A DNA stretch of 64,000 nucleotides from Escherichia phage HX01. The notes below the pieces were generated by a model. It did not search any database. It was not told the origin of the DNA and was given only the letters and a program-made list of their open reading frames with translations. The stretch lies in the sequence record NC_018855.1; one strand, given 5' to 3'. The translations under genes and the position numbers were made by a program. Shown here piece after piece: positions 1,314 through 15,616 of the stretch; position 1 is the stretch's first letter, and the number at the start of each line of letters is the position of its first letter.

Positions 1314-1808
1314 ATGAATATCAATACTATGGCTACTTACATCCTGAAAGACGAAAAACAAATCAACTGGTACGGTGCTTCAGTGCGAGCTTATGAAAAG
1401 TTTTGTGAAATTTTAGGTGCCACTCAAGGTAATAGTTTCACTATTGTTAACTTCATCAAACAAGCTGAAGGCCCTTGGTTATTCTTAGAAATTAAAAATT
1501 CACACGGTACAATTTCTACTACCGCCCTTCCAAGCACTGACTTTGAACTGTTGATTGAAGAAGCACCTGTTAAAGATGGTCTCCACTTTGATATGGACAT
1601 CGCTTGTATGTACGGTACTCTGATTAAGCCTATTGAGCCTACTGATTTGTTGTGTAAAGCTGTTTCAATTCGACGTCCGTTCGCAGGACCAGTGAGTGGA
1701 TGGGTAACTGATCAGTGGATTGAAGACGGTGTTGAACTTCTGAACGTAGTTCATGCGGGTGATTTTAGTGTAGTTCCACGTAGTGCAGTAGTTAATATCC
1801 TTAATTAA
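1314..1808 (+). CDS. Hypothetical protein, paralog A of a tandem three-gene family (motB-region)
   Basis: 164 aa; C-terminal motif GWVTDQWIEDGVELLNVVHAGDFSVVP shared with the two downstream ORFs; own promoter upstream. Confidence 0.6.
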   Translation: MNINTMATYILKDEKQINWYGASVRAYEKFCEILGATQGNSFTIVNFIKQAEGPWLFLEIKNSHGTISTTALPSTDFELLIEEAPVKDGLHFDMDIACMYGTLIKPIEPTDLLCKAVSIRRPFAGPVSGWVTDQWIEDGVELLNVVHAGDFSVVPRSAVVNILN

Positions 1809-1810
1809 TG

Positions 1811-1840
1811 TTGTACATCCAAGGATGGATGGAGTATAAT
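1811..1840 (+). promoter_or_regulatory. Early-type promoter (TTGTAC-18-TATAAT)
   Basis: Near-copy of promoter at 1253 (spacer CATCCAAGGATGGATGGAG). Confidence 0.55.
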
Positions 1841-1872
1841 GAATTCAATTTAAACAAAGAGAGAGAGAAATT

Positions 1873-2337
1873 ATGATTACTATTGGTGAAATCCTTCGTG
1901 TATCTCCTGCTTCTCGTTCTAAAGCTGCAGGTCGTCTGGTTGAAGTAGCAGGGCTTCGTACTAACGGCATGGGACGTGTTAAAGAAGTTAAAGTTCGAAT
2001 CATCCCCAGTTTTGGCGGACAAGATGCCCAGTATGCTTACGTAAGTCCTAAATTCCTGGAAAAACATATACGAGTCCAATTTGCTTCAAGCGATATCGTT
2101 GAGCCTACTACACAGTTCAAATGGGCCCTTTGCAAAGGCGTTGAATTTATAACCGATAAAGAATTTGATTACATCGACGAATACGGATATCCAAGCAAAA
2201 CTGATATTATGTGTGGCTTCATTAGTGACCAATGGGTTGAAGATGGTGAAAAGTTATACAATATCGTATTCTTAGGTGACTTCCGAGTTGTTAAAGAATC
2301 TGAAATCACTCGCTATGTGTCTCCTCGTAAAGCTTAA
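1873..2337 (+). CDS. Hypothetical protein, paralog B of tandem family
   Basis: 154 aa; full-length similarity to ORF 2347-2766 (SPASRSKAAGRLVEV vs SVASRSKVAGKLVEV; FISDQWVEDGEKLYNIVF vs FISDRWVEDGVKLYNIVF). Confidence 0.6.
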   Translation: MITIGEILRVSPASRSKAAGRLVEVAGLRTNGMGRVKEVKVRIIPSFGGQDAQYAYVSPKFLEKHIRVQFASSDIVEPTTQFKWALCKGVEFITDKEFDYIDEYGYPSKTDIMCGFISDQWVEDGEKLYNIVFLGDFRVVKESEITRYVSPRKA

Positions 2338-2346
2338 GGAATTATT

Positions 2347-2766
2347 ATGAATATTGTAAATCTTTCTACAGGTGATTACGTATATGTATCTGTTGCTTCT
2401 CGCTCTAAAGTTGCCGGGAAGTTGGTTGAAGTTCTTTCTGTGAGTGATCCGGTTTTTGGACGTAACGAAGTTAAAGTTCGTGACGCCGATGGTAATATTG
2501 GTTACGTTAAAAGCCAATTCATTGAACCAGAAGAAAAGGCGTTCAAATGGGGACTATGCAGATCAGTTTCTGTTGAAAAAGACCACGAATTCACTATTGC
2601 TGCGGCAACCGATGGAACGCCATGGAAAACTAAGCAAATCGCCGGATTTATTAGCGACCGTTGGGTAGAAGATGGTGTTAAGCTTTATAACATCGTTTTC
2701 GCTGGTCAGTTCATGGTAGTTCCTGAATTCCAAATTAAAAAATATAGCCCAGCTGCTTTCGCATAA
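2347..2766 (+). CDS. Hypothetical protein, paralog C of tandem family
   Basis: 139 aa; paralog of ORF 1873-2337; RBS AAGGA upstream. Confidence 0.6.
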   Translation: MNIVNLSTGDYVYVSVASRSKVAGKLVEVLSVSDPVFGRNEVKVRDADGNIGYVKSQFIEPEEKAFKWGLCRSVSVEKDHEFTIAAATDGTPWKTKQIAGFISDRWVEDGVKLYNIVFAGQFMVVPEFQIKKYSPAAFA

Positions 2767-2770
2767 AGTT

Positions 2771-2799
2771 GTTTACTTCTCCTCTGGTTTTGATATTAT
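2771..2799 (+). promoter_or_regulatory. Early-type promoter (GTTTAC-17-TATTAT) inside an 11-bp inverted repeat
   Basis: CTCCTCTGGTT (2779-2789) and AACCAGAGGAG (2809-2819) flank the -10; right arm carries the RBS. Confidence 0.55.
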
Positions 2800-2825
2800 A
2801 GCCATATTAACCAGAGGAGAATAAT

Positions 2826-3350
2826 ATGTTAGTTTACCGCGTAGAACGTAGTTTTTGTACTCAACGTGAATCATTACCAGGAATTGCTATTGAAGACGGT
2901 AAAGCCGTCAGAATTTGGGAAACCTCTTGGAATAAAGAACCTCGCTCACCATACGGTTGGTCAGGCACCGACAACTCTGAAGAAACATGGGAGTTCCTTG
3001 ATAAACATGGAATACTCTCAGGTAACTTCTACCATCATGGCGACAACTATAATGTCCCTAATCGTCCTACAGTAAATGAAGACAAACTCCTTGAACAAAA
3101 TATCTTAAGATACTATAGAATTGAGCACACATTTGAATTGAGTGAAGATTGGGCTCAAGGGTTCTATTTTGGATTTGAAAGTGTTGACGCGGTTTATGCA
3201 TGGTTTGATGACCAGGTGGATGTTGAACTCCTGAAAGCTAAAGGATACTACATCGCCGTCTATGAAGCACCTGATTTCATCCTCGGAAGTTGTCAATTAA
3301 TGTTTAGACGTTCATTGGCAGAACAAGTTGATTTTATTTTGCTAAAATGA
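2826..3350 (+). CDS. Hypothetical early protein
   Basis: 174 aa ORF with strong RBS GAGGAGA 6 nt upstream and early promoter at 2771-2799. Confidence 0.55.
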   Translation: MLVYRVERSFCTQRESLPGIAIEDGKAVRIWETSWNKEPRSPYGWSGTDNSEETWEFLDKHGILSGNFYHHGDNYNVPNRPTVNEDKLLEQNILRYYRIEHTFELSEDWAQGFYFGFESVDAVYAWFDDQVDVELLKAKGYYIAVYEAPDFILGSCQLMFRRSLAEQVDFILLK

Positions 3351-3379
3351 TGTACAACAACTATGGTCTATGATACTAT
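3351..3379 (+). promoter_or_regulatory. Early-type promoter (TGTACA-17-TACTAT) with palindrome GGTCTAT/ATAGACC around -10
   Basis: Palindrome 3365-3384. Confidence 0.5.
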
Positions 3380-3407
3380 AGACCTATCAAAACAAGAGGA
3401 GAATATT

Positions 3408-3635
3408 ATGAAACGTCAAATCATTAAAAACGTAACTACTGATTCAAACATCGATGAGTTTGAAGATGTTCTGTTTAATCCTGATTTAGTTGTTGTACAG
3501 AAAAGCTGGACCGAATTTTTATGCTACACCGAAGTGGTTTACGTTTACGAAAAACTCGGTGATGAAATGCCTATCTATGGTATCTTCCGTGAAATCACTG
3601 AAAACGGTACAACTTATTGGAAGGAAACTTACTAA
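3408..3635 (+). CDS. Hypothetical protein (start moved to ATG with AGGAG RBS)
   Basis: ORF track 3363-3635; in-frame ATG at 3408 is preceded by AAGAGGAGAA; promoter at 3351-3379. Confidence 0.5.
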
Positions 3636-4045
3636 TGGCTAATAAATTTGAAGTTAATAAATGGTATCAGTTCATAGATAAACGTGCCCAAGAAGAGTTT
3701 ATTAAAGACCACACTGATAATGGGATTTATGCACGACGTCTTGGCATGGAGCCATTTAAAGTATTAGATGTTGACCATCTTGGACGTCCTACTAAACTTG
3801 TGACATCTACTGGCATGGTTGGATACGCAACAGGCGGTGATATCCTTGATGAAAACTTTATCTGGCTCTCCACAAATGAAGCAGAGTTCTTTGACGAAGT
3901 TGAAAATCCATATCAAGCGTCCGAAGAGCAAGATTCTGGTGAACTTGACGAATTGTCTGAATTTCCTGTGATGACGATTACTATCGAAAATAATGATCAG
4001 GCATGGTCTTTGTATCAAATGTTGAAAACACATTTTAAGGAATAA
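3635..4045 (+). CDS. Hypothetical acidic protein
   Basis: ORF track 3617-4045; ATG at 3635 overlaps the upstream stop (TAATG) and has an AAGGAAA RBS. Confidence 0.5.
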
Positions 4046-4047
4046 TA

Positions 4048-4227
4048 ATGCCATTATACGACTATAAATGTCAATCTGAAGATTGTGGCCATGAATATGA
4101 AAAAATTAAAAGAATTTCTGAACGAGAAAACGATGTTTGCCCTGAATGTCATCGTTTGTCTACTCGTCGGGTTTCTGCTCCTAAACATGTGAACGGTGGT
4201 TTTTACGACTTACTTAAGAAGGGTTAA
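4048..4227 (+). CDS. Small zinc-ribbon protein (CxxC...CxxC)
   Basis: 59 aa, below ORF-track cutoff; MPLYDYKCQSEDCGH...CPECH; tightly packed between neighbours. Confidence 0.45.
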   Translation: MPLYDYKCQSEDCGHEYEKIKRISERENDVCPECHRLSTRRVSAPKHVNGGFYDLLKKG

Positions 4228-4229
4228 TT

Positions 4230-4655
4230 ATGGCTTTTAAAGGTTTTGAAGTTGGTAAGAAATATCGTATTATCAAAGGACAGGAAGATAATTTCTTGAG
4301 AATTCTTAATACGACTGGTAAACGTCTTAATACTAATCTGCATACTACTTTGTTGTCCAAAGATTTTATTGTAGAAGAGATGATTGGTTACGGCGTTTCG
4401 GTTATTGCCGTAGAAGCCGTAGGCGATTATGGCCGAACTATTCATAGTATGCAAGGTGATATTCTGCTTTATGGTGCAGAATTTAAATTCTTTGAAGAAG
4501 TTCCGGAACCAGATACATCTGTCGATTTCAAAAAAGGCTCTGTAGAATTTGTTGATGGTTCGGTGATCGTATCAGGTGATGTGGTCATTACAGTTAAAAG
4601 TGAACAAGGGCGTTTGGCTGCAATTGATGCACTTCAGAAAATTAAATTTAAATAA
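4230..4655 (+). CDS. Hypothetical protein, positional and length equivalent of T4 goF (141 aa)
   Basis: 141 aa ORF followed directly by a UUCG hairpin terminator; sits upstream of gene 39 as goF does in T4; sequence identity not verified. Confidence 0.45.
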   Translation: MAFKGFEVGKKYRIIKGQEDNFLRILNTTGKRLNTNLHTTLLSKDFIVEEMIGYGVSVIAVEAVGDYGRTIHSMQGDILLYGAEFKFFEEVPEPDTSVDFKKGSVEFVDGSVIVSGDVVITVKSEQGRLAAIDALQKIKFK

Positions 4656-4673
4656 GGGCTTCGGCCCTTTTTG
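4655..4673 (+). terminator. Intrinsic terminator (GGGC-UUCG-GCCC plus T-run)
   Basis: AGGGCTTCGGCCCTTTTT immediately after ORF 4230-4655. Confidence 0.7.
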
Positions 4674-4696
4674 CTTTAGATTTCGGATGATAGAAT
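4669..4696 (+). promoter_or_regulatory. Putative MotA-dependent middle promoter
   Basis: MotA-box-like TTTGCTTTA at about -30, 12-nt spacer, TAGAAT -10; overlaps upstream terminator; precedes homing endonuclease. Confidence 0.45.
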
Positions 4697-4702
4697 ACCT
4701 TT

Positions 4703-5386
4703 ATGAAATACATAACATACTTAACAATATACACAGGCGATAAGTTGCCACCGTTTTATATAGGGTCTACTTATCTTGATAAACATACAAACAATTACTA
4801 TCATGGTACGGTAAAGTCGAAAAAATATAAACAAATTTATGATAAAGAGATAAAAGATAATCCTCATTTATTTGATTCATGTATTATTGGCGAATTTGAT
4901 ACACGGGAAGAAGCGACGTTTTGTGAGTTGTATTACCAGAAATTGCATAATGTGGTTAAATCTGAAAAATTTTTCAACATGTCTTATGCCACAGTTGATG
5001 GGTGCTTTGGTATGGATGTTTCAAAAGAGTTAAATCCATTTTATGGACATAATCACTCTGAAGAAACTATTGAACTACAATCCGTTATCAAGAAAGGCGA
5101 TCTTAATCCGATGTATGGAATTAAGCGCCCGGAACATTCTAAAGCAATGAGTGGCAAAAACAATCCATTTTATAATAAGAAACATACAAAGGAAGCGCTT
5201 ATAAAGTGTGGGCTTAAAAATCGTAAAAGTCCTGTATGGGAATATGAATCTGCTTTATATAAATTATGGTTAGAATTGGATAAACCAAAGGTTGGGAAAT
5301 TTGCTAAAGAAAGCATTAAACGTGGATTTCCGGAAGGTTCATACAAAAATATAGTCATGCAATTTGAGAGAAAATCTAATGATTGA
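4703..5386 (+). mobile_element. Free-standing GIY-YIG homing endonuclease (Seg-like) with NUMOD3-type repeats
   Basis: 227 aa; N-terminal YITYLTIYTGD...FYIGST (GIY-YIG); repeated NPFYG/NPMYG...HS(E/K) modules; 8-nt overlap with gene 39 start. Confidence 0.8.
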
Positions 5387-7199
5387 TAATAAAATTGAAA
5401 TGCTATCCGATAAAGAGCATTGTTTGAAGCGTCCTGGCATGTATATTGGAAGTGTTGCCAATGAAGAACAAGAACGTTTCCTATTCGGTGAATTTAAAAA
5501 GGTTAAATATGTTGCAGGTGTTCTCAAATTAATTGATGAAATTATTGACAACTCGGTAGACGAAGCTATTCGAACCAATTTCAAATACGCTAATAAAATT
5601 TCCGTTAGTATTGATTTAAATTCTAATAAAGTGACTGTTGAAGATAATGGTCGAGGTATTCCTCAAGAAACAGTTATTACTCCTGAAGGAGAAGAAATTC
5701 CAGGACCAGTTGCGGCGTGGACACGTACAAAAGCCGGTGGCAACTTTGGTGACGACAAAGAACGTGTTACGGGTGGACAAAACGGTGTCGGTTCTTCATT
5801 AACAAATATTTTTTCTGTCTCTTTTGTTGGCACTACTTCAGATTGTAAAAACGAATTGACAGTTAATTGTTCTAATAATGCTGATAATATTTCTTGGAAA
5901 TCTAAGCCGTCTAAAAACAACGGGACTAAGGTCGAGTTTATTCCTGATTTCTCTCATTTTGAAATGAATCAATTTGAAAAAATATACCAAGATATTACTA
6001 TAGACCGGCTCCAAACATTGGCAGTCGTTTATCCTGGCATTGAATTTAAATTTAATGGCAAAAAGATTCAAGGTAACTTTAAGAAGTTTGCTAAACAATT
6101 TGATGAAGAGGCCATCATTCAAGAACAAGACGGATGCTCTATTGCCATTGGTCGGTCACCAGATGGCTTCCGACATTTAACTTATGTTAATAACATCCAT
6201 ACCAAAAACGGCGGTCATCACATTGAATGTGTGATGGACGACATTTGCGAAGAATTAATTCCGGCTATTAAACGCAAATATAAAATCGACGTGACTAAAG
6301 CGCGCATCAAGGAATGTCTCACTCTCTTAATGTTCGTTCGTGGAATGAAGAACCTTCGTTTTGATTCCCAAACCAAAGAGCGTTTAACAAGTCCTTATGG
6401 CGAAATTCGGACGCATATTAAATTAGATACCAAAAAATTGGCAAAAAATATTTTGAATTCTGAAGCAGTTTTGATGCCTATAATTGAAGCAGCATTAGCT
6501 CGTAAATTGGCAGCAGAAAAGGCCGCAGAAACTAAAGCAGCTAAAAAGGCAACTAAAGCTAAGGTTCATAAGCATATTAAAGCTAACCAATGTGGTAAAG
6601 ATGCAGATACGACATTGTTTTTAACAGAAGGTGATTCGGCAATTGGTTATCTCATTGATGTTCGTGACCGTGAACTACACGGCGGATTCCCATTACGTGG
6701 TAAGGTGATGAATAGCTGGGGTATGTCATATGCTGATATGATGAAGAACAAAGAGCTCTTCGATATCTGTGCTATCACAGGTCTTATTCTTGGTGAAAAG
6801 GCAGAGAATACGAACTATCGTAATATTGCAATTATGACCGATGCCGATCATGATGGTCTTGGAAGTATTTATCCGGCTTTGCTTGCTTTCTTTAGTAATT
6901 GGCCTGAATTGTTTGAACAAGGACGTATTCGCTTTGTTAAAACGCCTGTAATTATTGCACAAATTGGCAAAACTCAAAAATGGTTTTATACTGTAGCTGA
7001 GTATGAAGAAGCTAAAGATACACTGCCTAAGCATAGTATTCGATACATCAAGGGATTGGGCTCCCTTGAAAAGTCAGAATATCGTGAAATGATTCAGAAC
7101 CCTGTGTACGACGTAGTTAAACTTCCTGAAAATTGGAAAGAACTCTTTGAAATGTTGTTGGGTGATGATTCAGAACTTCGTAAAGAATGGATGTCCTAA
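5379..7199 (+). CDS. 39: DNA topoisomerase II large subunit (GyrB-like ATPase), contiguous 39 plus 60-equivalent
   Basis: ORF track 5364-7199; start placed at MIDNKIEMLSD matching T4 gp39 N-terminus; GHKL ATPase and Toprim-like motifs; 606 aa with no split. Confidence 0.9.
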   Translation: MIDNKIEMLSDKEHCLKRPGMYIGSVANEEQERFLFGEFKKVKYVAGVLKLIDEIIDNSVDEAIRTNFKYANKISVSIDLNSNKVTVEDNGRGIPQETVITPEGEEIPGPVAAWTRTKAGGNFGDDKERVTGGQNGVGSSLTNIFSVSFVGTTSDCKNELTVNCSNNADNISWKSKPSKNNGTKVEFIPDFSHFEMNQFEKIYQDITIDRLQTLAVVYPGIEFKFNGKKIQGNFKKFAKQFDEEAIIQEQDGCSIAIGRSPDGFRHLTYVNNIHTKNGGHHIECVMDDICEELIPAIKRKYKIDVTKARIKECLTLLMFVRGMKNLRFDSQTKERLTSPYGEIRTHIKLDTKKLAKNILNSEAVLMPIIEAALARKLAAEKAAETKAAKKATKAKVHKHIKANQCGKDADTTLFLTEGDSAIGYLIDVRDRELHGGFPLRGKVMNSWGMSYADMMKNKELFDICAITGLILGEKAENTNYRNIAIMTDADHDGLGSIYPALLAFFSNWPELFEQGRIRFVKTPVIIAQIGKTQKWFYTVAEYEEAKDTLPKHSIRYIKGLGSLEKSEYREMIQNPVYDVVKLPENWKELFEMLLGDDSELRKEWMS

Positions 7200-7200
7200 G

Positions 7201-7225
7201 CTCCTTCTGGAGCTTCATTTTAATT
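7201..7225 (+). terminator. Possible terminator hairpin after gene 39
   Basis: GCTCCTTCTGGAGC then TTCATTTTAATTTT; weak T-run. Confidence 0.35.
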
Positions 7226-7241
7226 TTAATAAGGCTTAATT

Positions 7242-8342
7242 ATGAAAGTTATGTTTATCCCATCTCGTGCAGTCCCATTTAATCCTGACCGTGTACAAGG
7301 TGGTCTTGAAGCAGTACATTTAAATGTGTTGAAATATCTTGTGTCCATCGGTGCTGATATTGATTATATCGGCTTTGATAATGACACGTTTGGTGACTGG
7401 AAAGTTACACACCATCCTGTTGGTCATCTGACTAAATTTAGTCTAGGTATGAGTTATACTATGGCTCGTAAGATTGTTGAACTAGCCGGCATCCATGAAT
7501 ACGATTTTGTTGTTACTATGGAACCGACTAAACTAACCGTTCAGGCAATTAAAGACGCAGGTCTCTCTAAAGTTCATAAGAATTTTATGGCAACACCATT
7601 TGAACCGGTATCTCGTGGCATTGTTCAAATTTGGGACCAGACTATTCAAATTCATAAGAATGGTGGTAAGAGTTATGCTCCTACTAAAGCCTTCCGTGAA
7701 TTTGAACGCAAATATTGTTATATGACTTCAGGTCTGACTGACAAAATTGATTATGATTATTGGCGAGCAAATCCGTTGTTTGAAGCCGAAGATTATCCGG
7801 TTATTTGTTTGAATGAGAAACCTGAAGTTCTTCCGGCGACTGATCTGATTATTAGTGCACAACGTTATGACACTAAAATGCGTCGTACTGATGTTGCTCT
7901 TGAAGCGATTAAAGCACTAGGCGAAAATGGTGTAGGATACTGTCCAAGCAAATGGGCACCACCAGCTAAATATCCTGTTATTATTGATGCTCCACACAGT
8001 GAAATCATGGAACGTCTTAAAACAGCTAAAGCGCTTATTAATACGTGTCCTGACACAGGTACGGTAGAGAATAGTTCTATTGAAGCCATCTCTAAAGGTG
8101 TCCCTGTAATCCAGTTAGTTTTTAAGGATTATCCTCATGCGACATTCGAATACGACCCAGATACTGTGCGTGTAGAAATTGATTCCTCTACTCCTAAGAA
8201 AGAAGTAGTTGCGCTTTACACAAAAGCTGTATTAGAATTCACTGACACATACGAAGCTCGAGTTAAACGTGCTGAAGCAGTATGGAAGAAGTATAACCGA
8301 GATGCAGTTGTTGCGATGTGGGATAAAATCTTCACAGCGTAA
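7242..8342 (+). CDS. Glycosyltransferase-like protein (GT-B fold), candidate DNA hypermodification transferase
   Basis: 366 aa; N-terminal MKVMFIPS...GGLE Rossmann start and C-terminal ...TVENSSIEAISKGVPVI resembling the GT4 E-x-E region; occupies the slot between gene 39 and rIIA. Confidence 0.5.
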   Translation: MKVMFIPSRAVPFNPDRVQGGLEAVHLNVLKYLVSIGADIDYIGFDNDTFGDWKVTHHPVGHLTKFSLGMSYTMARKIVELAGIHEYDFVVTMEPTKLTVQAIKDAGLSKVHKNFMATPFEPVSRGIVQIWDQTIQIHKNGGKSYAPTKAFREFERKYCYMTSGLTDKIDYDYWRANPLFEAEDYPVICLNEKPEVLPATDLIISAQRYDTKMRRTDVALEAIKALGENGVGYCPSKWAPPAKYPVIIDAPHSEIMERLKTAKALINTCPDTGTVENSSIEAISKGVPVIQLVFKDYPHATFEYDPDTVRVEIDSSTPKKEVVALYTKAVLEFTDTYEARVKRAEAVWKKYNRDAVVAMWDKIFTA

Positions 8343-14290: not shown

Positions 14291-15616
14291 ATGCAATTGA
14301 ATTCTCGTAATCTAAAAAGTATTATTGATAACGAAGCCTTAGCATATGCGATGTACACCGTTGAAAACCGTGCAATCCCAAACATGATTGATGGATTTAA
14401 GCCGGTTCAACGTTTTGTGGTTCATCGTGCGTTAGATTTGGCTCGTGGTAATAAAGAAAAATTTCATAAACTTGCGTCAATTGCAGGAGGTGTTGCAGAT
14501 TTAGGTTATCATCATGGCGAATCTTCTGCACAAGATGCAGGTGCATTGATGGCTAACACATGGAACAACAACTATCCGTTGTTAGATGGCCAAGGCAACT
14601 TTGGTTCTCGAACAGTCCAAAAAGCTGCAGCATCTCGTTATATTTTTGCTCGTGTAAGTAAAAATTTCTATAACGTATATAAAGATACTGAATATGCTCC
14701 AGCTCATGAAGATAAAGAACACATTCCGCCAAAATTCTATCTTCCTATTATTCCGACAGTTCTTTTGAATGGCGTCTCTGGTATTGCAACCGGTTACGCA
14801 ACAAATATTCTGCCTCATAGTTTTAAATCAGTCAAAAAGGCTGTATTACAAGCTCTTCAAGGTAAAAATGTCACTAAGCCAAAAGTTGAATTCCCGGAAT
14901 TCCGTGGTGAAGTACATGAAGTTGATGGGCGTTATGAGATTCACGGAACATATAAGTTCACATCTCGCACTCAAATGCAGATAACTGAAATCCCATATAA
15001 ATTCGACCGTGAAACGTATGTGAGTAAGGTTCTTGACCCGTTGGAAGACAAAGGTCTAATCTCATGGGAAGATGATTGTGGTGAACACGGCTTTGGGTTT
15101 AAGGTGAAGTTCCGTAAAGAGTACTCGCTTCCTGATGATGAAGAGCTACGTCATGAAAAAATCATGAAAGATTTTAGTCTCATCGAACGTCGTTCACAAA
15201 ACATCACAGTGATTAATGAAAAGGGTAAATTAGCAGTCTACGATAACGTAGTGGACTTAATCAAAGATTTTGTTGAAGTCCGTAAGACTTACGTTCAGAA
15301 ACGTATTGACAACAAAATCCTTGAATCTGAAAAAGCGTTTAAACTTGCTTTTGCTAAGGCACACTTCATCAAAAAAGTTATTACAGGTGAAATTGTGATT
15401 CAGGGCAAGACTCGTAAAGCTTTGACTGAAGAGCTAGCACAAATCGAAATGTATAAAGAACATGTCGATAAACTGGTAGGTCTTAACATCTTCCATATCA
15501 CTTCCGACGAAGCACGTAAACTAGCAGAAGAAGCTAAAGCTAAGAAAGAAGAAAATGAGTATTGGAAGTCTACCGATGTTGTGACAGAGTACACTAAAGA
15601 CTTGGAGGCACTTTGA
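14291..15616 (+). CDS. 52: DNA topoisomerase II medium subunit (GyrA-like)
   Basis: 441 aa; N-terminal region ...AIPNMIDGFKPVQRFVVHRA is GyrA/ParC-like and matches T4 gp52. Confidence 0.92.
   Translation: MQLNSRNLKSIIDNEALAYAMYTVENRAIPNMIDGFKPVQRFVVHRALDLARGNKEKFHKLASIAGGVADLGYHHGESSAQDAGALMANTWNNNYPLLDGQGNFGSRTVQKAAASRYIFARVSKNFYNVYKDTEYAPAHEDKEHIPPKFYLPIIPTVLLNGVSGIATGYATNILPHSFKSVKKAVLQALQGKNVTKPKVEFPEFRGEVHEVDGRYEIHGTYKFTSRTQMQITEIPYKFDRETYVSKVLDPLEDKGLISWEDDCGEHGFGFKVKFRKEYSLPDDEELRHEKIMKDFSLIERRSQNITVINEKGKLAVYDNVVDLIKDFVEVRKTYVQKRIDNKILESEKAFKLAFAKAHFIKKVITGEIVIQGKTRKALTEELAQIEMYKEHVDKLVGLNIFHITSDEARKLAEEAKAKKEENEYWKSTDVVTEYTKDLEAL

Follow-up and report, generated by a model that had tools for sequence, protein, structure and literature searches.

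Gene 39 of phage HX01

The DNA analysed here (the window) is a stretch of 64,000 nucleotides from Escherichia phage HX01 (NC_018855.1). HX01 is a Mosigvirus (RB69-like coliphage), and the window is 98.7% identical to the Mosigvirus vB_EcoM_G2285 (G2285 below). Gene 39 ("60plus39") lies at positions 5379..7199 and encodes a complete DNA topoisomerase II large subunit (GyrB/ParE-like) of 606 aa. It is on the plus strand, as are the other genes, the Shine-Dalgarno sequence, the MobA site and the two annotated hairpins described below. The reading frame is open from position 5364 (TTG) to 7199. The in-frame ATG at 5379, which gives the 606 aa chain, is the likely start codon, because a Shine-Dalgarno sequence GAGAG (positions 5366..5370) is present 8 nt upstream and the N-terminus is aligned to T4 gp39 residue 1. 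The N-terminal sequence MIDNKIEMLSDKEH lines up with residue 1 of other homologues as well. The Shine-Dalgarno sequence is located inside the 3′ end of an upstream open reading frame that encodes an endonuclease; other phages that carry this endonuclease display GAGAG, GAAAG or GAGAGG at the matching position.

The catalytic motifs of the gene 39 protein are all intact and the Pfam domains follow one another in the expected order. The GHKL ATPase domain (Pfam HATPase_c, 6.2e-10) shows the N-box, G1 and G2 motifs (EIIDNSVDE at residue 54, DNGRGIP at 89 and GQNGVGSS at 133). The transducer domain (DNA_gyraseB, PF00204, 5.9e-13; 49 bits, cut-off 27) has its QTK loop, SQTKERL, at residue 330. The Toprim domain displays the catalytic Glu in LTEGDSA at residue 415 and the DxDxD motif in DADHDG at 488; the Pfam TOPRIM_C match (3e-06, 27.9 bits) is slightly below the cut-off of 29. 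Gene 39 would be translated conventionally into one 606 aa protein. Its partner would be gp52, the topoisomerase II medium subunit (GyrA/ParC-like), whose gene 52 homologue is at 14291..15616 (Pfam DNA_topoisoIV, PF00521, 8.2e-78, residues 27–429).

A terminator-like hairpin spans the gene 39 stop codon (7198..7215) and another is found 3′ of the RB69ORF005c homologue (4654..4669). Both are marked as terminators in the G2285 record. The second is identical in sequence in JS09 and RB69 and belongs to an intergenic region common to Mosigviruses that are free of the endonuclease. A further terminator-like hairpin at 6765–6782 (−6.3 kcal/mol), just 5′ of the MobA insertion region, is present in Mosigvirus only and is missing from other genera; it is regarded as a chance structure.

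Comparison with T4 genes 39 and 60

In phage T4 the large subunit is divided between gp39 and gp60. The HX01 protein is orthologous to both and is collinear with gp39 followed by gp60. BLASTP shows that aa positions 1–475 correspond to T4 gp39 1–473 (364/475 identical, 77%, E = 0.0) and aa positions 474–606 to T4 gp60 27–159 (116/133 identical, 87%, E = 6e-88). The gp60-equivalent part is at 6798–7196. At the nucleotide level (blastn), positions 1–1424 of the gene align to T4 gene 39 and positions 1488–1815 to the part of gene 60 that follows the coding gap. The body of gp39 and the post-gap part of gp60 are thus separated by 63 nt in HX01 vs 1116 nt in T4, where the interval holds the gp39 tail, mobA, 60.1, the gp60 N-terminus and the 50-nt gap.

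The insertion site of MobA, as defined by Manning and Atkins (bioRxiv 10.1101/2022.08.31.505936), and of the 50-nt coding gap is empty in HX01. By the codon listing and the blastn gap it is at 6804..6860 (codons 476–494). Codon 493 (6855–6857) is GGT and is followed directly by CTT and GGA (codons 493–495 being contiguous). Gly493 (GGT), whose codon is equivalent to the take-off site, and Leu494 (CTT) correspond to T4 gp60 Gly46 and Leu47. None of the GGA codons in frame in gene 39 precedes a stop codon, and GGATAG and the coding gap are absent.

Searches of the whole 64-kb window gave concordant results. The T4 coding gap (blastn-short) yielded chance matches of 10–14 nt only. With tblastn, the T4 gp39 tail (aa 474–516) and the gp60 head (aa 1–30) gave E-values > 0.1 throughout. 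This was also the case for T4 gp60.1, PM2 MobA and the AV118 HNH protein, all at chance level. The split, the gp39 tail, the gp60 head, mobA, 60.1, the GGA-UAG take-off site and the coding gap are therefore properties of T4 that HX01 is without.

These data agree with a sequence-only reading of the window, which had taken the large subunit to be one contiguous 606 aa gene with no gene 60 split, no bypass element and no mobA between the gene 39 and gene 60 parts. Gene 39 is contiguous and lacks MobA and the bypass, and there is no counter-evidence to its contiguity. The same reading had expected the C-terminal 150 residues to align with gp60. An alignment with gp60 is indeed found but it comprises the last 133 residues, since the coding sequence for the ~30 N-terminal residues of gp60 is part of the mobile element.

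Distribution of the unsplit gene

The undivided gene is already on record. RB69 gp39 (NP_861694) and JS09 "gp60plus39" (YP_009037499) are the same gene, with a length of 605–606 aa and with the same placement as in HX01, between the RB69ORF005c and RB69ORF003c homologues. The records of both phages label the unsplit gene "gp60plus39". The "60plus39" of T2 and RB14-type phages is likewise an unsplit topoisomerase II large subunit. The unsplit state is thus documented in RB69, JS09, T2 and RB14-type phages. Of 60 tblastn matches sampled at even spacing, 51 have 94% or more of the protein as a single uninterrupted piece.

Manning and Atkins consider the unsplit Topo2L gene to be parental and the MobA/bypass element a sporadic invader of Topo2L genes; they describe independent insertions of the MobA element in six clades (bioRxiv 10.1101/2022.08.31.505936). 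The uninterrupted state of the locus, which the sequence-only reading had singled out, is borne out, but this parental arrangement is also much the most frequent one and was annotated before in RB69 and JS09. It is T4 that departs from the norm.

The endonuclease open reading frame upstream of gene 39

An open reading frame of 227 aa at 4703..5386 overlaps the start of gene 39 by 8 nt. It appears to be a free-standing GIY-YIG homing endonuclease gene, with an N-terminal catalytic domain and C-terminal NUMOD3 DNA-binding repeats (PF07460, 8.7e-12, up to three stretches).

Sequence searches gave only weak matches or none for the catalytic domain. The Pfam GIY-YIG model (PF01541) aligned residues 3–83 with profile positions 2–73 at E = 1.9 (9.3 bits). 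A phmmer search of PDB sequences gave no match. A seven-sequence profile missed the catalytic domain in PDB and showed a weak match of the NUMOD3 region to I-TevI 1i3j; the I-TevI DNA-binding domain (1i3j) is a weak match to the C-terminal region of the endonuclease. A match of this profile to TenA is spurious. For this reason structure prediction and Foldseek were used. The AF2 model has a pLDDT of 88 (94–98 over residues 1–30 and 88–97 over residues 1–90), and the top seven Foldseek matches in PDB are all GIY-YIG domains. The best, at a probability of 0.99 (TMt 0.63, E = 0.075), is 1mk0, the catalytic domain of I-TevI. Among 70 homologues, residues Y10, Y19, I20 and E75 are invariant, and G21, R68 and N92 show conservation of 90% or more. 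The structural model thus indicates that the 4703–5386 product has a GIY-YIG fold, as the sequence-only reading had supposed.

That reading had also regarded the locus as a target for mobile nucleases. The distribution of the open reading frame is in line with this, as it occurs in only a few Mosigviruses. At 98–100% protein identity the endonuclease is found in 8 phage records only, 7 of which are complete Mosigvirus genomes; most Mosigviruses are without it, and their matches extend over 81% of the query only. G2285 and JM10 are among the Mosigviruses that carry it. In HX01 it occupies the place of a 14-nt leader that precedes gene 39 in JS09. On the upstream side the two phages are 95.5% identical, up to the very edge of the endonuclease open reading frame. 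Phage JK45 was considered as a possible intermediate, but it is simply without the endonuclease and has an extra open reading frame downstream.

The same endonuclease family is present directly 5′ of gene 39 in Bp7, TG1, PM2, Mexia, KMB20 and Biddle, and at least six genera have it at this site. Yersinia phage TG1 gp009, Klebsiella phage Mexia gp006 and Bp7 gp108 display 65–78% protein identity to the HX01 endonuclease and have the same length and position, overlapping gene 39, in phages of other host genera. Their records are labelled either "GIY-YIG homing endonuclease" or "HNH endonuclease". The "HNH" label given to the family in RefSeq and PHROG conflicts with the predicted GIY-YIG fold.

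Mosaic structure of gene 39

Gene 39 of HX01 consists of two parts with different relationships to the genes of RB69 and JS09. Nucleotide positions 1–1105 of the gene are ~30% diverged from both, while positions 1106–1821 are ~99% identical; overall protein identity is ~80%. Sliding identity shows a sharp transition and the maximum-likelihood breakpoint falls after nt 1105. Compared with JS09 there are 332 mismatches in 1105 nt (30.0%) on the 5′ side of the breakpoint and 8 in 716 nt (1.1%) on the 3′ side. No such breakpoint is found in gene 39 of a control pair, JS09 and Lutter.

The 5′ segment (5379..6483) encodes the ATPase and transducer domains and appears to be imported. The 3′ segment (6484..7199), with the linker, Toprim and C-terminal domain, is native to Mosigvirus (98.6–98.9% identity to RB69/JS09), and the gp60-equivalent part is wholly within it. 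The best matches of the 5′ segment outside Mosigvirus are Bp7 (78.6%), IME281 (76.6%) and TG1 (75.3%), all of which have the endonuclease. The nearest relatives of the 5′ allele are thus found in phages of other genera that have the endonuclease.

Equivalent breakpoints in gene 39 are seen between Bp7 and QL01 (nt 1107) and between Mexia and 15882-5 (nt 621), so that the pairing of endonuclease and gene 39 allele and the breakpoint pattern are found in Dhakavirus and Jiaodavirus as well. The combination of the endonuclease with 0.6–1.1 kb of gene 39 has an independent origin in three genera. Two phages show a different pattern: FB has an endonuclease-type gene 39 allele without the endonuclease, and Biddle has the endonuclease together with a gene 39 5′ end of the endonuclease-free type. 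Therefore the allele and the endonuclease can be uncoupled.

The mosaic breakpoint and the sporadic presence of the endonuclease are direct observations. Judged from the sequence relationships, the 5′ 1105 nt of gene 39 are most likely a foreign allele that arrived with the endonuclease; the gene 39 locus would then not be pristine, because this 5′ part is foreign.

Discussion

The explanation that best accounts for the locus, to which we assign a probability of about 0.9 as a whole, is that gene 39 of HX01 is an ordinary, unsplit parental gene whose MobA/bypass site is empty and was never occupied, and whose chimeric 5′ part was imported with the endonuclease by homing.

An empty site could also be left behind if a MobA element had once split gene 39 and had then been excised with re-fusion of the two halves; this course of events has been proposed for certain Aeromonas phages. 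Re-fused genes are known in other clades (bioRxiv 10.1101/2022.08.31.505936), and a Mob-family HNH gene is located just 3′ of gene 39 in the sister phages AV109–AV118. Re-fused genes, however, retain homology to the gp39 tail and the gp60 head that the element encodes, and the T4 tail and head gave tblastn E-values > 0.1 against the window. The chain length of 606 aa equals that of RB69 (606 aa) and compares with 605 aa in JS09 and Lutter, so there is no insertion, and positions 6513–7199 are 97–100% identical to RB69 and JS09. Such a re-fusion is effectively refuted. Rapid evolution in situ of the ATPase and transducer domains, such as might accompany escape from a host defence or inhibitor, has a probability that is nearly as small. 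It would fit a divergence that is limited to particular protein domains, but not the knife-edge boundary between 30% and 1.1% nucleotide mismatch in one gene, nor flanking genes that are 95% identical to JS09, nor a 5′ segment nearer to Bp7/TG1 (75–78%) than to its own genus (69–70%).

More weight has to be given to ordinary homologous recombination, with the endonuclease as a passive passenger or an inactive relic, although we consider this unlikely. Recombination is very active in T4-like phages, the downstream breakpoint is exactly where inter-genus nucleotide identity turns high, and FB and Biddle demonstrate the uncoupling of allele and endonuclease. The shared breakpoint near nt ~1105 could reflect no more than a hotspot of general recombination, the sequence there being highly conserved, and this would count against homing. 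The weak match to the Pfam GIY-YIG model and the absence of the catalytic domain from the results of the PDB sequence searches likewise speak against it. On the other hand, the upstream edge of the foreign tract is within a few nt of the endonuclease start codon, and the endonuclease with its 0.6–1.1 kb gene 39 tract is found independently in three genera. Moreover, the endonuclease open reading frame is intact, its catalytic residues are invariant across the 70 homologues, and the family is consistently present at one site in at least six genera. The recurring pairing and breakpoints fit homing with co-conversion.

With homing, the GIY-YIG gene (4703–5386) would have replaced the short gene 39 leader and brought with it 1105 nt of gene 39 from a diverged donor. 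Cleavage activity, a target site and homing itself are presumed in this scheme. The endonuclease would cut endonuclease-free gene 39 alleles during mixed infection, and repair would transfer both the endonuclease gene and the adjoining 5′ part of gene 39, which in the donor would be resistant to cleavage. The exchange would be resolved downstream in the first stretch that is near-identical between genera, in the linker-coding sequence at gene nt ~1106.

SegF (gene 56), SegG (gene 32), SegB and MobE are free-standing homing endonucleases of T4 that show co-conversion of flanking markers. The HX01 GIY-YIG/NUMOD3 protein resembles these Seg and Mob proteins in being encoded between genes, in its sporadic presence among close relatives and in the diverged allele of the essential gene next to its own. 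It differs from them in its locus, the gene 39 leader, and apparently in its family, which is barely detected by the Pfam GIY-YIG model. The T4 region at 30–62 kb, in which Seg proteins were sought for a profile comparison, contained Mob genes and I-TevII only.

The main result is that HX01 carries the normal "before" state of the T4 gene 60 bypass. As this state is already on record, the result by itself matters little. A side result is a clean natural case of a free-standing endonuclease gene combined with a large block of an essential gene, in three genera and with defined breakpoints. A second is the correction of a database label, "HNH" in RefSeq and PHROG, for a family with a predicted GIY-YIG fold. 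It is somewhat more likely than not that a putative, uncharacterised GIY-YIG homing endonuclease family specialises in the 5′ end of the gene for the topoisomerase large subunit and has spread over at least six T4-like genera. Each invasion would replace 0.6–1.1 kb of this essential gene by a diverged allele, presumably one that resists cleavage, and so create a chimeric topoisomerase. Two further endonuclease insertions are found at gene 39, i.e. MobA at codon ~475 and, in sister phages, a Mob-like HNH gene just past the stop codon; Proteus phage PM2 has two of the three gene 39 endonucleases at once. If the proposed endonuclease family is real, gene 39 would be a hotspot with three sites, each open to an independent selfish nuclease. 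A G2285-like phage crossed with RB69/JS09 would be a testable system for marker exclusion between ara-hmC phages.

Gene 39 reading frame and comparison with T4

Gene 39 of phage HX01 encodes the topoisomerase II large subunit. The open reading frame listing of the window gives positions 5364–7199 with a TTG start, and an in-frame ATG at position 5379 yields a 606 aa product (5379–7199, + strand). The ATG is the credible start, rather than the TTG, because a GAGAG Shine-Dalgarno sequence is present 8 nt upstream (5366–5370) and the N-terminus, MIDNKIEMLSDKEH, matches T4 gp39 and other phage homologues from residue 1 onward. The product displays a GyrB/ParE-like domain order (HATPase_c, DNA_gyraseB, TOPRIM_C; Pfam) and intact N-box, G1, G2, QTK, Toprim-Glu and DxDxD motifs. 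The enzyme is predicted to work conventionally.

T4 genes 39 and 60 (NC_000866) were used as references. By BLASTP, residues 1–475 show 77% identity to T4 gp39 1–473, and residues 474–606 show 87% identity to T4 gp60 27–159 (E = 6e-88). Nothing in the HX01 product corresponds to the final 43 residues of T4 gp39 or to the initial ~30 of gp60. At the DNA level, gene nt 1–1424 and 1488–1815 (counted from the ATG) align with T4; these blocks are separated by 63 nt in the window vs. 1116 nt in T4, where the interval comprises the tail of gp39, mobA, 60.1, the head of gp60 and the 50-nt gap. The equivalent of T4 Gly46 (take-off GGA, then UAG) is GGT at positions 6855–6857, followed by CTT GGA AGT. 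Neither an in-frame GGA plus stop nor GGATAG was found in gene 39, and a search of the whole 64 kb for the coding gap, the T4 tail and head peptides, gp60.1 and a MobA-type HNH sequence showed no resemblance. Thus the sequence-only reading, which had proposed a single contiguous reading frame with no gene 60 split, bypass element or mobA, is borne out by the collinear gp39 and gp60 matches; misalignment with gp60 and a cryptic frameshift or bypass signal were also examined, and the outcome favors it.

A hairpin with a 7-bp stem (ATCTGTG CTAT CACAGGT, 6765–6782, + strand, -6.3 kcal/mol) is located within gene 39, a short way 5′ of the MobA insertion site of other phages. It is probably a chance occurrence, since it is restricted to Mosigvirus and not kept in other genera.

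The interpretation of the locus as the uninterrupted state is also supported, but the arrangement is the norm and already documented. The region shares 98.7% identity with Escherichia phage vB_EcoM_G2285 and falls within Mosigvirus (RB69 group). The RB69 database record notes that the T4 large subunit is split by an insertion, and the JS09 record names its gene "gp60plus39". A tblastn search across all phage records matched 2219 of them, and in 2019 of these 80% or more of the protein maps to one place; in an evenly spaced sample of the matches, 51 of 60 rows show a single uninterrupted piece covering 94% or more of the protein. According to Manning and Atkins (bioRxiv 10.1101/2022.08.31.505936), the unsplit subunit is the parental state, and the MobA element (~1.1 kb), bypass cassette included, is a mobile invader in six clades, each with 96%–99% identical relatives that do not have the element; re-fused "hit-and-run" genes retain element-derived inserts. 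Gene 39 of HX01 has the parental length and no such insert, which makes a re-fused gene very unlikely here. The unsplit gene is therefore real, but already known.

Upstream endonuclease

An open reading frame at positions 4703–5386 (+ strand, 227 aa) adjoins gene 39 on its 5′ side. It displays NUMOD3 repeats (Pfam); its Pfam GIY-YIG match is below threshold (E = 1.9), and its relatives are labelled "HNH" in RefSeq and PHROG (PHROG 10820). An AlphaFold model has a mean pLDDT of 88 (94–98 across the first 30 residues). The top seven Foldseek matches to the PDB are all GIY-YIG domains, led by the I-TevI catalytic domain 1mk0 (probability 0.99, target-normalised TM 0.63, E = 0.075), with UvrC next. 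In an alignment of 70 homologues, residues Y10, Y19-I20-G21, R68, E75 and N92 are invariant or nearly so and fit the GIY-YIG catalytic set; we take them to correspond to I-TevI Y6, Y17, E75 and N90. On predicted fold and conserved residues the protein is accepted as a GIY-YIG endonuclease, as had been proposed for this neighbor of gene 39, and an HNH identity is rejected. The database name "HNH endonuclease" for this family appears to be wrong.

No recognisable Shine-Dalgarno sequence precedes the endonuclease ATG (gaataccttt, then ATG; 4690–4705), and this ATG is just 3′ of the −10-like element used by gene 39 in phages without the endonuclease. These two features suggest that endonuclease translation is weak, leader-poor and coupled to that of gene 39.

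Other open reading frames and insertions

Directly 3′ of gene 39, at positions 7242–8342 (+ strand, 366 aa), is a homologue of RB69ORF003c (PHROG 8302, E = 1e-222), found in the same place in RB69 and JS09; a Pfam search of it showed no domain. RB69ORF003c has been proposed as an arabinosyl-hmC transferase (Thomas et al. 2018, PMC6024577), and because of this homology HX01 DNA probably carries arabinosylated hmC. Three tandem open reading frames (1314–1808, 1873–2337 and 2347–2766, + strand) have a common C-terminal motif (approximately GFISDQWVEDGxKLYNIVFxGxFxVV) and are apparent paralogues in the equivalent of the motB region.

The sister Mosigviruses AV109–AV118 have an ~800-bp insertion directly after the gene 39 stop codon (AV118 stretch 4102–4900), missing from the window at 7193/7194. 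It encodes a 143-aa open reading frame and a 116-aa HNH fragment with 50% identity to the N-terminus of MobA from Proteus phage PM2 (E = 9e-30). Over the final ~200 nt of gene 39 in these sister phages, identity falls to 79%–90%, and this 3′ end resembles a second conversion tract linked to an endonuclease. PM2 itself (2598–5872 of the compared stretch) combines the upstream GIY-YIG endonuclease with a gene 39 split by MobA (ORF1 3268–4812, MobA 4799–5614, gene 60 from 5742), thus two unrelated selfish nucleases in one gene.

Chimeric structure of gene 39

Relative to JS09, the endonuclease open reading frame stands in for just 14 nt, the Shine-Dalgarno-containing leader of gene 39, and identity across the upstream flank is 95.5% as far as the endonuclease ATG. 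Gene 39 has one sharp breakpoint after nt 1105 (window 6483), with 332 mismatches to JS09 in 1105 positions (30.0%) on the 5′ side vs. 8 in 716 (1.1%) on the 3′ side. The pattern is the same against RB69, and a control comparison of JS09 with Tequatrovirus gene 39 showed no break. The best matches to the foreign 5′ part are gene 39 of Bp7 (78.6%), IME281 and TG1; these phages are from other genera, and each has the same endonuclease family. By these comparisons, gene 39 is a chimera.

The endonuclease family is found directly 5′ of gene 39, mostly overlapping its start, in several genera: Dhakavirus (Bp7), Tegunavirus (TG1), Bragavirus (PM2) and Karamvirus (KMB20), and in Klebsiella phages Mexia and Biddle. 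This architecture recurs in independent comparisons made within genera, with gene 39 breaks after nt 1107 (Bp7 vs. QL01) and nt 621 (Mexia vs. 15882-5). There is also a systematic difference in the initial 30 nt of gene 39: ATGATTGATAATAAAATTGAAATG in endonuclease-carrying vs. ATGATTAARAAYGAAATTAAR in endonuclease-free phages.

Proposed origin of the mosaic

The best reading of the mosaic is intronless homing, for which T4 SegF, SegG and MobE offer an analogy. The endonuclease would cut endonuclease-free gene 39 alleles during mixed infection, and repair would copy the endonuclease gene and, with it, the resistant 5′ sequence of the donor gene 39. Resolution of the exchange would take place at the first near-identical stretch of donor and recipient, the linker-coding IEAALARKLAAEKAAETKAAKKA, from nt ~1106.

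Alternatively, ordinary recombination may have made the mosaic with the endonuclease as a passenger. This is unlikely, but it is retained because two phages show allele and endonuclease uncoupled. Phage FB (1540–3429 of the compared stretch) has the endonuclease-associated allele, 99% identical to Bp7, with a leader of the endonuclease-free type and no endonuclease; phage Biddle (2601–3340) has the endonuclease with an endonuclease-free-like 5′ end of gene 39, which has a probable GTG start 60 nt upstream of the annotated one. Allele and endonuclease are thus separable. The endonuclease-linked chimerism is a neat new instance of a type of process already known, and one unsurprising to a T4 specialist.
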